A DNA stretch of 61,983 nt, counting the filler, from Globobulimina sp. (lineage: Eukaryota): NCBI GenBank assembly GCA_003354225.1. It is 15 parts of 15 records of this genome, joined end to end, with 100 filler letters (N's around TTAATTAATTAA, not from the genome) between each part and the next. Parts side by side here need not be neighbours in the genome. Positions count along the whole stretch, not along the records: positions 45,544 to 49,579 come from PIVH01001703.1; 14 more parts are not named here. One strand, written 5' to 3'. The notes under the pieces were generated by a model, which ran no database searches, was not told the DNA's origin, and worked only from the letters and a program-made list of their open reading frames with translations. The first letter of the stretch is position 1, and every line of letters begins with the position of its first letter. Positions 25,662-49,579 of this stretch are shown piece after piece. The position numbers were made by a program, and so were the translations under genes.

Positions 25662-25903
25662 TCAATATATAACATCTATAGCAGGTACATATATTATGGC
25701 GTTTATAGTGGGTACATTGGGCGGTGAGAGATGAATGAGAGCGAATATTATTGCATTTACAGTGAGTAAAATAGGCGGTGGAGAGCGAGGAATAACCGCC
25801 AATATTTTGGCATCTATAGCGAGTACAATGGGCGGTGGAGAGAGCGAGGAATATAACTGCCAATAATATGGCATTTATAGTGAGTACATTGGGCGGTGGA
25901 GAG
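25662..25903. repeat. Tandem minisatellite, ~55-61 bp unit (ATATTATGGCATTTATAGTGAGTACATTGGGCGGTGGAGAG...), 4 copies plus a partial
   Basis: Units start at ~25691, 25745, 25802 and 25863. Confidence 0.8.
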
Positions 25904-26052
25904 ACTATTGGTTGGATTAAAATGGATCGTTTGCACCGATCCAATGTCAGTGCGTTTTGTGAGATTAAATTAGTTTATAATGGATCGATAGCACCGGTCC
26001 AATGTCAGTGCGTTTTACGAGACAGAAATATTTATAAATTGTTTTTCTTTAT

Positions 26053-45543: not shown

Positions 45544-45662
45544 TCAGGCTTTTATATACAAATTTTATTATACCATAAACACGTTTTTAGTTTTCTTTAT
45601 ATATTCTGTACAATAGCAATACACTTTTTAGTTTTCTTTCTATATTCTATACACAAACAATA
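45544..45662. repeat. Left inverted repeat (119 bp, perfect reverse complement of 49461-49579)
   Basis: TCAGGCTTTTATATACAAA...ACACAAACAATA compared base by base with the right end. Confidence 0.95.
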
Positions 45663-45704
45663 CACTTTTTAGTTTTCTTTATATATTCTGTACAACACAA
45701 CAAT
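45579..45704. repeat. ~41-43 bp subterminal tandem repeat (ACACTTTTTAGTTTTCTTT.TATATTCT.TACA....CAAT), three copies on the left and two on the right
   Basis: Units start at 45579, 45621 and 45662. Confidence 0.85.
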
Positions 45705-45758
45705 AAATGCATAATACACAAAACACAATGTACAAATAGAATACACATGGTGATGAGC

Positions 45759-47096
45759 TTATTGATGATAATAAACAGTTTTGATCATATTTTGCATGGC
45801 ATAGCCACCTTCCAGCGAGTATGTGAAGCATTTTTCGTACTGTAGAAATACTAAACCAACAACTCCTCTGGGCAATTCTTCTTTAAACTTCACTTCCACG
45901 CTTAGTTGTCCTGAAGGGTCAGGTCTGAGATTGTCACAACAAAATACTCCATAGTGTCCGGCAAAGTCTTGTGCTCTGATTCCAATTGGTTCACCAGTTT
46001 TGAAAGCTTTCGTCGTTTGAATCAATGACATATAGCTTTCAGCATAATCATTATTCTCAAAATCCATTTCGAAAGGCTTTTCCATAATAGGTTTATTGTT
46101 AATATAAAATTGCAACCAACTTAGTTTGTACATTGATGATGGAAAAATCATAGGATTGTTCTCCCAGTTCTTGCCATTGATACTGTCCTCATCACATATA
46201 GCAAAATATATACGTCTTGGAGCACCGCTACCTGGTATCATCTGACGCCAGCTTTGAAATCCTTTACCAATGTTAAAAAATCGTGGCTTTGTTTCTGTAA
46301 ACGGGTATTGTGCAGGAAGCTTCTTGGCTAATAGTTTATCCACACTGCGAAGAATATCTTCATATAATATGGCACGTCCCACAATCAATTTGCAGTCATT
46401 GATAACAACTTTGTATGTATCCGTTATTTTACTACCAAAGAATCGTTCATCGGTTCGTATTAAACAGTTTGCATCTGAGTTTGGTTTCAAAACGATTTGA
46501 ACATCAATGTTGGGAAGAAGAGGTTTCGTTGTTGTGAAAAAATTGTGGTTCAGCTGGCCATACAATTTTAAATGACGACTTTTTGCTATCCTCCAATGAC
46601 GCATTGCACTATTATCTGCTGGATATCCACGATCTTTGTGCCAAACAATAGAATCTGCCAAGATGTCATCCAGAAAGTTATCACTGTTGTTAAGGAGACG
46701 ATGCAACAGAGCAGTTTGGGGATTGTAAGTATTATCGGTTGCAATCATTTGTTCGTTGATCTGTACTGTCACATTAAAAAACAATGCATCGAAAAAGTCA
46801 TTACAAGGTTGTATTTTGCCTTCATCCTCAACAGTCAAGTCTTGGCCATTTTCTTTGAATACTTGTACATCTACTTTGACAAAACAGTTTCTGAGATCTG
46901 TACAATATTCGCGGTCTCGTGGGATATTGAATATAAAGTCTCGTCCTTGACCATATGCAGGTCGGAATTCTTCATAGAATGTACGCTTTATACACTTGTC
47001 TTCATCAGGAAGTTGATCAAAAATGTTCAATGGACCATTGGGATCATTATTTTCATCATCTACAGAGTATGACAAATTTCGCATACGTTTCATCAT
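45759..47096 (-). CDS. Polinton/Maverick-type double-jelly-roll major capsid protein (PY/hexon-like), 445 aa from first ATG
   Basis: Motifs in the order typical of Maverick MCPs: TDLRNCFVKVDVQV, PCNDFFDALFFNVTVQINEQ, YNPQTALLHRLLN, LYGQLNHNFF..KPLLPNIDVQIVL, PRRIYFAI..SING..NNPMIF, YAESYMSL and GQLSVEVKF..LP..VVGLVF. Confidence 0.88.
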   Translation of the reverse strand: MMKRMRNLSYSVDDENNDPNGPLNIFDQLPDEDKCIKRTFYEEFRPAYGQGRDFIFNIPRDREYCTDLRNCFVKVDVQVFKENGQDLTVEDEGKIQPCNDFFDALFFNVTVQINEQMIATDNTYNPQTALLHRLLNNSDNFLDDILADSIVWHKDRGYPADNSAMRHWRIAKSRHLKLYGQLNHNFFTTTKPLLPNIDVQIVLKPNSDANCLIRTDERFFGSKITDTYKVVINDCKLIVGRAILYEDILRSVDKLLAKKLPAQYPFTETKPRFFNIGKGFQSWRQMIPGSGAPRRIYFAICDEDSINGKNWENNPMIFPSSMYKLSWLQFYINNKPIMEKPFEMDFENNDYAESYMSLIQTTKAFKTGEPIGIRAQDFAGHYGVFCCDNLRPDPSGQLSVEVKFKEELPRGVVGLVFLQYEKCFTYSLEGGYAMQNMIKTVYYHQ

Positions 47097-47185
47097 CACA
47101 CAGAGAATTTCAGCCACACAACCGCACAGGAAAATAATATATTAACAATGGTCAATGTTTCAAAGCCATGGCTTTAAGGTTGAGT

Positions 47186-47204
47186 TGACCTAGTGACCTA
47201 CTTT
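47186..47204 (-). promoter_or_regulatory. RevDR2/RORE-like nuclear-receptor element AAAGT-AGGTCA-CT-AGGTCA upstream of the MCP
   Basis: Plus strand reads TGACCTAGTGACCTACTTT, ~90 nt upstream of the MCP ATG. Confidence 0.45.
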
Positions 47205-47220
47205 TTGGAGCCGATACTAA

Positions 47221-47233
47221 CGCCACCTAGTGA
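47221..47233. promoter_or_regulatory. CTCF-like motif CGCCACCTAGTGA, left bracket of the array
   Basis: 12/13 inverted match to TCACTAGTTGGCG at 47794-47806; resembles the CTCF core CCACTAG(G/A)TGGCGC. Confidence 0.4.
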
Positions 47234-47265
47234 GAAACATGGTTTGTACCAGAAATGTAAGTTGA

Positions 47266-47752
47266 GATCCACAAATTTGTGGATCATCATCAGTTTTAAA
47301 CCAGATATTTAAGTTGAGATCCACAAATTTGAGGATCAACGACTGTTTTATAGCAAATAACTGCAATGAGATCCACAAATTTGTGGATCAACGTTTGTTT
47401 TACAGTGGATTTTGTGTTAAGATCCACAAATTTGTGGATCAATAGCCGTTTTTATAGCAAATAACTGCATTGAGATCCACAAATTTGTGGATCAACATCT
47501 ATTTTATAGCAAAGAACTGCATTGAGATCCACAAATTTGTGGATCAACGTTTGTTTCACAGTGTATTTTGTGTCGAGATCCACAAATTTGTGGATCAATA
47601 GCTGTTTTAGAGTATATATCTGTGTTGAGATCAAGAAATTTGTGGATCAATTTCTGTTTTATAGCAGATGTTTGTGTTGAAATCCACAAATTTGTGGATC
47701 TACATCCATGTAACAGCAGCTATCAGTGCTTAGATACACATATTTGAGGATC
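47266..47752. repeat. Array of ten 20-bp palindromes (consensus GATCCACAAATTTGTGGATC) at 51-53 bp period
   Basis: Starts at 47266, 47318, 47370, 47421, 47474, 47526, 47577, 47629, 47681 and 47733. The 31-33 nt spacers are mutually related. Confidence 0.95.
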
Positions 47753-47793
47753 AATTTCTGCTTTATTGTAGAATATATCACTTTGATTTAACG

Positions 47794-47806
47794 TCACTAG
47801 TTGGCG
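47794..47806. promoter_or_regulatory. CTCF-like motif TCACTAGTTGGCG, right bracket of the array; TATA-like TATTTAAA follows at ~47818
   Basis: Inverted partner of 47221-47233. Confidence 0.4.
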
Positions 47807-47889
47807 CTGGGGTAGTTTATTTAAAAGTCTAAAAATTAGCCTGGAGCACATTGTTTATTTATGCTTGGTTTGTGCGGTTGTGTTCTGCG

Positions 47890-48240
47890 ATGGCTGCTGT
47901 TTTTCAATGTATCAAATGCAAGGAAGGTTTTGCTCATTTGACTAACCTCATAAGACATGCCTCTGTACATGAAAGCCTTGATTCGTGTCACGAATGTCCA
48001 CACTGTGGTTTTGTATCCAGAAGAAATGATAGCTTAAAACGACATATTGACAACTATCATAATCAAATTCATACTGAAATGGTTGAATCTAAAGACCCAG
48101 ATTCTGCAAATGACAATGACAACTATATAGATAATGTTTCCCCCTATCCAACGTGGCCTGTTGCGGCGGCCTCCTCTCCCCCTGACAAACAACCAACTTA
48201 TCCTGTTCATATATCAAATGAGCAAATGCCAAGACAGTAA
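47890..48240 (+). CDS. Small C2H2 zinc-finger protein (two fingers, 116 aa)
   Basis: FQCIKCKEGFAHLTNLIRHASVH and HECPHCGFVSRRNDSLKRHIDNYH. ATG at 47890; the stop TAA overlaps the next ATG. Confidence 0.85.
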   Translation: MAAVFQCIKCKEGFAHLTNLIRHASVHESLDSCHECPHCGFVSRRNDSLKRHIDNYHNQIHTEMVESKDPDSANDNDNYIDNVSPYPTWPVAAASSPPDKQPTYPVHISNEQMPRQ

Positions 48241-49383
48241 TGTCAATGGCCTTTGACAAACGCTTCCTACTACCGCACAACTTTCTCTATATTGGTGCTA
48301 CACAAAGTGTAAGTTTATAATATGATCTGCTTCTCCGAATATAATATTTATGTATTACAGGGCAAAACTTCGTTGCTGATCAAAACACTGGAAAATGCTA
48401 GCAAAATGTACAATCCTGTACCCACACGAATATTCTTTTTATATAGCTGTAAGTTTACATTTAGTTATTGTTACATGTTACACAAAATAATAGAATAAGC
48501 TATATTTGTAGGTTTTCAACAAATTTACGAAACACTGCAAGAAAAGTTACATGCCCAAAGCATAATGTGTCAATTCGTCAAGGCTTCTACAGTTTCTGAA
48601 TCAGATATTGAGGCCATGGCTGACCCAAATGGAGGGCAAACTCTGATTATTATTGATGACAGCTCTATTTCGGCTGCCAGCAGCCCTCAAGTTGCTCAAG
48701 TTTTTACAATGGCTCGGCATAAAAACTGTAGTATTATACTACTTTTACATTTTATATTTGGCCCATGGCCAAGTGCCAGGATAATATCGGCAAACACAGC
48801 TTACTTCCTGCTGATGAAATCTCCCCGACTGACAAAACAGGTGTCGATCTTAGGTTCACAACTCGGGAGACAGAAAACTCTTGTTTCGGCCTATGAACGT
48901 GAAATGAAAAAGTCATATGGTTATGTCCTATTGGACTTGTGTACTGCCACTCCAGATTATCTTCGTGTACGAACTGACATTTTCGAAGAAAACTCCAAAC
49001 ATATCACAACTGTTCAAACACAGCCTACTCCAGTAAAAGCTTCATATTCACAAGACGAAGCTGGATATTCCGTAAATGAGGGCAAAAAGCCTTTAGATGA
49101 CAATTTAGTTACGGTCCCAAACCTGGCCACTGCTGAGAAACCAAAAAGAACCTGGGTAAAGTGGGGAGATGATCCAGAAACACCAGACCTTAACAGCGTT
49201 TTGAAATCGAAGAGACTATGGGTTAAAGGTCAACGAAAGACTCGAAAACCGAAAGAAGTAAAGAAAAAGCAAAAAGTAAAAATGGGGGCAAAAATTACAG
49301 AGGACGATGAAGACCTGCTATACTTGGCAAAAATAACAAAACGTTATGGATCCTGGGCTAATAATAAGAAAACAGGATGGTAA
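48240..49383 (+). CDS. A32/FtsK-HerA-type genome-packaging ATPase of Polinton type; exons 48240-48308, 48361-48448 and 48512-49383 (342 aa)
   Basis: GTAAGT..AG introns at 48309-48360 and 48449-48511 give FDKRFLLPHNFLYIGATQS|GKT (Walker A), PVPTRILFLYSCFQQIY, LIIIDD (Walker B), FTMARHKNCSII, ISANTAYFLLMKSPR and YGYVLLDL..TPDYLRVRTDIF. Confidence 0.92.
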
Positions 49384-49460
49384 TGCGCTCAATGATTAAA
49401 CAAAATGTTTTGACACTGTGATCAAGTATATGTAACTGTATGTATGTATTATGTTATTAT

Positions 49461-49579
49461 TATTGTTTGTGTATAGAATATAGAAAGAAAACTAAAAAGT
49501 GTATTGCTATTGTACAGAATATATAAAGAAAACTAAAAACGTGTTTATGGTATAATAAAATTTGTATATAAAAGCCTGA
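49461..49579. repeat. Right inverted repeat (119 bp), containing AATAAA at 49554-49559
   Basis: Reverse complement of 45544-45662. Confidence 0.95.

Follow-up and report, generated by a model that had tools for sequence, protein, structure and literature searches.

A phased palindrome array and its predicted two-finger reader in a Polinton-type capsid/ATPase element of a Globobulimina assembly

A phased array of ten palindromes

What reads a row of ten palindromes set between two divergent virus-like genes, and to what end? The row lies in a 61,983-nucleotide stretch of DNA from the Globobulimina sp. assembly GCA_003354225.1 (the window; its source assembly is called G000 below), in which contigs of about 4 kb are concatenated via N-linkers; the context of the element concerned is positions 45544-49579 only, that is, contig C1703. 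This 4,036-bp contig carries a capsid gene on one side of the array and, on the other, a gene for two C2H2 zinc fingers followed by a packaging ATPase gene. Among relatives of this locus, finger residues and palindrome bases change together, and sequence comparison makes it very probable that each array is bound by the fingers of its own element.

47266..47752, no strand assigned: array of ten palindromes; arm GTGGAT, 6-bp A/T centre, 20-bp unit, period 51.9 bp

The unit, GATCCACAAATTTGTGGATC, is a perfect 20-bp palindrome that occurs ten times, six of them exactly, with starts at 47266, 47318, 47370, 47421, 47474, 47526, 47577, 47629, 47681 and 47733 and with 0, 1, 0, 0, 0, 0, 0, 2, 1 and 3 mismatches in that order. 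Dinucleotide shuffles yielded such matches in 0 of 100 cases. Successive copies are spaced by 52, 52, 51, 53, 52, 51, 52, 52 and 52 bp, a mean of 51.89 bp or 5 × 10.38 bp. In the first nine units each palindrome column is conserved in 8–9 of 9 copies, versus 3–9 of 9 for spacer columns, and the spacers resemble one another (27/31 for spacers 3 and 6; 25.5–27 pairwise for spacers 2, 4 and 5). The array decays rightward, the last three copies holding 6 of the 7 mismatches. A first-pass annotation had described the same ten copies and periods, the better conservation of the palindrome, the kinship of these spacers and the decay, and each was recovered here.

Is this unit found elsewhere? In G000 the exact 20-mer occurs only on C1703, in its 6 exact copies, and the 801-bp region around the array has no other occurrence there; in viral_contigs the exact palindrome was found in 0 stretches. 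Membership in the baculovirus homologous regions (hr) was rejected, because both the exact unit and the 801-bp region sit on C1703 only and are not dispersed. The array stretch was present in one of three sequencing runs (X1), which may derive from the source sample or from one close to it. Imperfect tandem repeats of 58–61 bp also occur at 25691-26027 of the window, on an unrelated contig.

Arrays of related loci are phased as well. Their 127 spacings in 21 arrays, six of which were entered by hand, take only the values 11, 20, 21, 29–32, 41, 42, 51–53 and 62 bp. A circular fit peaks at 10.3–10.4 bp (0.945 for all spacings, 0.87 for distinct values), and the chance of five period classes all falling in phase is, by a crude estimate, 0.003. 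Periods are of 2–6 turns and never of half-turns, and one array can hold as many as 16 phased units. The arrays thus share with the adenovirus-type packaging domain repeats spaced in whole helical turns.

Finger residues and array arms across related loci

Does the adjacent finger protein fit the palindrome?

47890..48240, plus strand: two-finger C2H2 open reading frame (ORF), 116 amino acids (Pfam zf-C2H2, E 1.1e-07, over the cut-off)

The recognition helices of this ORF are HLTNLIR (finger 1) and RNDSLKR (finger 2); searched alone, the ORF had no match in the protein database. We took the contact scheme at helix positions -1, 3 and 6 from PMC5260074 and the helix table from PMC3607563, which pairs GTG with RSDALTR, GTT with TSGSLVR, GAT with TSGNLVR, GAG with RSDNLAR, GCG with RSDDLQR, GAC with DRSNLTR and AAG with RKDNLKN, finger 1 contacting the 3' triplet. 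By this published code the window fingers predict GTG-GAN, and the palindrome arm is GTGGAT.

We then compared 28 two-finger loci: G000 supplied 20, the window locus among them, and two public metagenome assemblies supplied the other 8. The G000 loci came from the best 30 of 53 matches together with ATPase matches, the remainder being host multi-finger genes or unfetched, and the decayed locus L013 was excluded; the metagenome loci are 8 of 13, three others having no fingers on the contig and two being spurious. An upstream array was present in 23 of the 28, and five loci were dropped with no array in the available upstream DNA (L109, 1,000 nt; L114, 419; L112, 393; L118, 227; L119, 77). The most frequent arm differs by lineage (GTGGAT, GTGGAG, GAGGAT, GAGGAG, GTGGCG, ATGGAG, GTGGAC, TGGGAC and others), nearly always flanks a 6-bp A/T-rich centre, and varies symmetrically on both sides of the palindrome. 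Neither of the two outcomes that the first-pass annotation had named as refuting its reading was found: the unit is confined in G000 to a capsid-bearing contig, and homologous loci mostly carry arrays.

How closely do fingers and arms correspond? For scoring, the code was extended from recall for Ser, Thr, Glu and Val at position 3, and residues outside the table were left unscored (122 of 138 contacts scored). In the 23 loci, which are related to one another and of which L115 contributes an arm resting on two units, 118 of 122 finger-base contacts fit the code, versus a mean of 94 and a maximum of 108 in 20,000 re-pairings. Three positions covary: (i) Asn at finger-2 position 3 goes with A in 8/8 loci and other residues in 0/15; (ii) Asp at finger-1 position 3 goes with C in 5/5 and other residues in 0/18; and (iii) Arg at finger-1 position -1 goes with G in 5/6 and other residues in 3/17. 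Controls pairing the wrong finger were not significant (p 0.12–0.66), and the sole finger with Asn at position 6 (L065) pairs with A. On a tree built with the helices masked, the three covarying states change 2, 4 and 3 times.

Code match and covariation support the first-pass proposal that the array offers many phased sites to the neighbouring C2H2 protein. The dimeric binder proposed at the same time is suggested only by the symmetry of the unit, and a strict dimer is not required, as at L111 (GCGGAT) and L140 (GTGGCG at 21 bp) the predicted hexamer is repeated directly. The joint change of finger and palindrome suggests a self-recognition tag. The family appears to be a rare natural case in which protein and site changes track the C2H2 code position by position, and one in which sequence alone points to a candidate cis site of a Polinton-type element and to the protein that would read it. 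It also hints that many related elements may coexist in one genome by means of such addresses.

To what are the fingers attached? In 25 of 26 assessable loci they are in frame with the first ATPase exon (L112 and L120 end too early), and this fusion tilts the likely function towards packaging. Other lineages have finger-ATPase proteins encoded by one intronless ORF (4 of the best 150 profile matches; twelve were aligned), and no genomic context for them was found in viral_contigs. Among distant-clade ATPase loci of G000, fingers or arrays were present in 0 of the 7 with at least 450 nt upstream, four more being too short. At L109, L111/L171 and L114, a decayed Walker A lies behind the finger gene and the last ATPase exon is missing; these loci are candidate finger-only derivatives that might compete for arrays.

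Candidate functions of the array

Are arrays confined to contigs with these genes? A degenerate core pattern gave 95 and 98 hits in G000 versus 6 and 2 for its reversed control, among the matches listed. When array-bearing contigs were searched for fingers, ATPase exon 3 and capsid, tblastn found them in 0 of 8; these contigs are 1.6–3.3 kb long and the genes may lie beyond. Several share DNA with ATPase 3' flanks and resemble deletion derivatives. The first-pass idea of a cis signal common to partner segments is supported in that related arrays do recur on gene-less contigs; the exact palindrome is on no other G000 contig, and no partner segments of this particular copy were found.

On 8 contigs a T-shaped hairpin lies about 70–350 bp from the array (positions by eye); none is visible on the window contig. 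Adjoining arrays, long inverted repeats end in two-armed T-shaped hairpins at L139:1-231, L131:1-185, L110:50-140, L164:2400-2544, L166:215-345 and L145:1770-1896, with arms that vary by lineage; that of L139 folds at -143 kcal/mol (z-score -29.5). The hairpins of these six contigs resemble parvovirus termini. The gene-less contig L145 (G000:C10810) has two arrays of different specificity, with A/T-rich repeats and hairpin-arm remnants between them, and looks from its sequence as if cis modules had been stacked. On L163 (G000:C3263, 349-2640), an ORF of 763 amino acids is followed by a three-unit array and a T-shaped hairpin. This ORF has four more partial copies in G000; its family had no Pfam, PHROG, PDB or Atlas support and no confirmed relative in viral_contigs, and its model, with a predicted local distance difference test score (pLDDT) of 35, was unusable. 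Its motifs NIDVTQD and KIYNK may be those of Rep_trans-type rolling-circle initiators; the ORF was assigned to no known family.

What is the role of a bound array? The prospects are about even that it is a cis self-recognition site by which a Polinton-type capsid/ATPase element selects its DNA for packaging. One two-finger domain very probably sits on each arm, finger 2 reading GTG and finger 1 GAT, so that each palindrome could hold up to two domains, and the five-turn period would bring every site to the same side of the double helix. As the fingers form the N-terminus of an A32-type packaging ATPase in relatives, the array might load several ATPase subunits, and such loading could mark the DNA for encapsidation much as adenovirus A-repeats do with IVa2. 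A finger/array pair for each lineage would give separate addresses to lineages sharing one cell, molecules with array and hairpin that are gene-less or bear other cargo could be picked up in trans, and in the promoter region finger binding may additionally regulate both genes. We rank packaging first for two reasons: the packaging ATPase of this family normally includes the fingers, and gene-less molecules keep arrays. A broader picture, possible though doubtful as a whole, is a multipartite, hairpin-ended double-jelly-roll virus or virus-like system with lineage-specific motor-borne fingers coevolving with a phased address array; capsid, motor and replication functions would be distributed over separate short molecules, and gene-less satellites would hitch-hike through a retained array and hairpin. 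If true, it would give Polinton-type elements their first defined packaging signal, and its finger-site pairs would form a natural library.

Several observations weigh against self-recognition for packaging. The window copy is itself the exception to the fusion: its finger ORF has a stop overlapping the next ATG and ends before the ATPase; this copy may encode two separate proteins, have a splice that escaped notice, or be damaged. Its array is central, more than 1.7 kb from each contig end, versus the terminus-near packaging domain of adenovirus (PMC5033970), and most arrays precede the finger gene by 100–250 bp, the position expected of an operator. L111 keeps 22 fitting GCGGAT sites though its ATPase has decayed (no exon-3 match), and therefore the fit of finger and array can outlast the motor. 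At L109 the fingers are intact, and the 1,000 nt upstream of them contain no array. As for the covariation, resolution of the tree is poor, and its starred branches yield just 1, 2 and 2 independent pairs, which never contradict the predicted direction but do not suffice for a sign test; hexamers were picked by frequency, yet after the hypothesis had formed; and L137 (4/6), L131 (4/5) and L044 (5/6) fit imperfectly.

Might finger binding to the array then serve solely to regulate the two divergent promoters, those of the capsid and finger-ATPase genes? An autoregulatory operator or enhancer would suit an array that lies between divergent genes, 156 bp from the first finger and at about 100–250 bp upstream in most relatives, and it would suit the 13-bp leader motif common to both genes, the separate finger ORF of the window copy and the L111 array retained after ATPase decay. 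We nevertheless hold it to be rather unlikely, as arrays also occur on contigs without a finger gene and 3' of the ORF in L163, arrays run to 16 units, and regulation does not call for fusion to a packaging motor. That arrays adjoin T-shaped hairpins on 8 contigs, that phased spacers are A/T-rich and that the L163 ORF has motifs which may be those of rolling-circle initiators would agree with an iteron-like origin, a terminal-resolution site or an oriP/parC-like tether acting with the hairpin end. Such a replication or tethering site seems distinctly unlikely: the cognate fingers are fused to a packaging ATPase rather than to a replication protein, the L163 ORF lacks database support and a usable model, and no hairpin was seen near the window array. 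Packaging, autoregulation and replication or tethering can coexist.

Readings in which the finger gene has no part fare worse. That the array serves a host factor, or is a neutral minisatellite beside which the finger gene just happens to lie, would agree with the kinship of the spacers, which would arise by tandem duplication, and with the many host multi-finger proteins encoded in G000. However, a host factor's site would not track the element's finger residues, arms vary symmetrically on both sides, periods keep to whole turns and the exact unit is on C1703 only; a generic host minisatellite was rejected, and we consider this reading very improbable and already largely refuted. A 20-bp palindromic repeat with spacers of 31–33 bp recalls clustered regularly interspaced short palindromic repeats (CRISPR) or a guide-RNA array processed at the palindromes. 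Such an array was rejected and is scarcely conceivable here: spacers are copies of one another, not unique, Rfam gave 0 matches at gathering score on the contig, and relatives have periods of 11–62 bp and direct repeats.

Which known systems come close? The Epstein-Barr virus oriP family of repeats, baculovirus hr, plasmid iterons and parC are phased arrays of short sites for an element-encoded binder, often adjacent to the gene for that binder. The present array is likewise a set of phased short sites for a predicted element-encoded binder, next to that binder's own gene, but unlike in those systems the binder is a two-finger C2H2 domain on a packaging motor, with no initiator or tethering domain identified. 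The adenovirus packaging domain consists of redundant A-repeats (A1–A7) with 21-bp spacing, bound by IVa2 and L4-22K and located near the terminus, just upstream of a promoter (PMC5033970). It shares with our arrays redundant repeats, whole-turn spacing, promoter adjacency and, as predicted here, reading by the packaging ATPase machinery. It differs in that IVa2 belongs to another ATPase class than A32/FtsK (PMC11071308), whereas our palindromes would be read by C2H2 fingers within an A32/FtsK-type ATPase, and in that the window array is central, its sequence varies between lineages and its packaging role is inferred. A location near a terminus is seen only in relatives whose array lies about 70–350 bp from a hairpin.

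With Polintons/Mavericks and adintoviruses (PMC11071308, PMC8502044) the element shares a double-jelly-roll capsid, an FtsK/A32-type ATPase and inverted repeats. Unlike them, C1703 has no polymerase, integrase, protease or penton between its inverted repeats, and has a spliced ATPase with fingers, cognate arrays and, in relatives, T-shaped hairpins. Stand-alone zinc-finger genes ('Ziftr') occur in some adintoviruses, and the available part of PMC11071296 mentions no target site or ATPase fusion for them. The same source describes multipartite bidnaviruses, one species having up to twelve segments. Such viruses consist of several short linear molecules that match at their ends and differ in cargo, a pattern that the hairpin-plus-array contigs resemble, but bidnaviruses have parvovirus single-jelly-roll capsids and NS1, whereas here a Polinton-type capsid and ATPase are present and segmentation is only a candidate. 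In the titles and abstract openings of the literature searched, we found no description of a finger-ATPase fusion or a cognate array, and the literature search returned nothing on a packaging signal of Mavericks/Polintons. The principle of a phased cis array read by an element-encoded protein is known. The present array matters because the literature searched offered no account of the way in which Polinton-type elements select their DNA for packaging.

The element carrying the array

The other features of C1703 are as follows.

45544..45662, plus strand: inverted repeat, left arm, 119 bp exact at the contig end; true repeat longer
45759..47096, minus strand: double-jelly-roll capsid gene, ORF of 445 amino acids (AF2 (AlphaFold2) model and Foldseek)
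47116..47128, minus strand: 13-bp motif identical to that at 47871..47883, before the capsid ATG
47871..47883, plus strand: 13-bp motif TGTGCGGTTGTGT, directly before the finger ATG; similar motif in most relatives
48240..49383, plus strand: A32/FtsK-type packaging ATPase gene (sequence reading, Pfam, profile relatives)
49461..49579, minus strand: inverted repeat, right arm, 119 bp exact

The capsid ORF has no Pfam, PHROGs or PDB match by sequence. Its AF2 model (pLDDT 63.9) gave Sputnik 3j26 (E 3.2e-15) and PBCV-1 Vp54 (E 6.4e-15) as best Foldseek hits, and by this model it matches double-jelly-roll capsids such as those of Polinton/Maverick (polintovirus) elements. The ATPase gene appears to have two GT-AG introns, 48309-48360 (within Walker A) and 48449-48511, across which Walker A and B are legible. 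Its last exon matches Pfam Pox_A32 at E 0.009, below the cut-off, and profile matches are Polinton-type ATPases, many with PF04665; relative to its closest relative, L130, the last exon differs at 29, 14 and 75 first, second and third codon positions, mostly third positions. By sequence it is thus an FtsK/A32-type packaging ATPase as in Polinton/Maverick elements. The capsid, the ATPase and two fused proteins had no confirmed relative in viral_contigs.

None of the ORFs between the inverted repeats is a polymerase, integrase, protease or penton. G000 has 24 capsid, 32 ATPase and 34 pPolB (PF03175) matches, with no PF03175 on C1703; its contigs are short and do not show linkage of these genes to C1703. 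An integrase-like ORF was read by eye on another capsid contig, L089. We do not file the element as a Polinton member, because the polymerase and integrase that define Polintons (PMC11071308, PMC8502044) could not be linked to it.

In run X1, a 646-bp contig starts at 49461 and extends 527 bp beyond the contig end; since it continues outside, the true inverted repeat is longer than C1703 shows. The 119-bp repeat was rejected as the full terminal repeat, given this extension and a 119-bp direct end overlap on another window contig. That contig (37270-41307) has identical 119-bp ends in direct orientation and may be a circular or tandem unit or an assembler overlap. The outer part of the inverted repeat was not found in G000, where matches are 41-bp repeats behind relatives' capsid and ATPase genes.

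The 13-bp motif is a candidate shared promoter or leader element of the divergent capsid and finger genes. In relatives, both finger and capsid genes have similar motifs (GTGCGGT / TTGCGGTTTT) ahead of them. A 40–42-bp repeat follows capsid and ATPase stop codons (window 45579-45705 and 49461-49544; L010:944-1046; L013:760-917; L015) and also occurs internally, between capsid and penton-like genes; it is a candidate 3'-end signal. Other short palindromic tandem repeats, different in each element, lie downstream of ATPase, penton or capsid genes (L038:1-186, L013:60-230, L016:207-281, L015:150-1020). Capsid genes of L015, L017, L018, L019, L026 and L030 apparently have an intron near the 5' end, and those of the window and L088 show no interruption at that location. 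Finally, neighbouring contigs give the impression of a foraminifer-type protist, but CTCF-like zinc fingers on L121 (G000:C47156) suggest animal DNA in an otherwise protist-like assembly.
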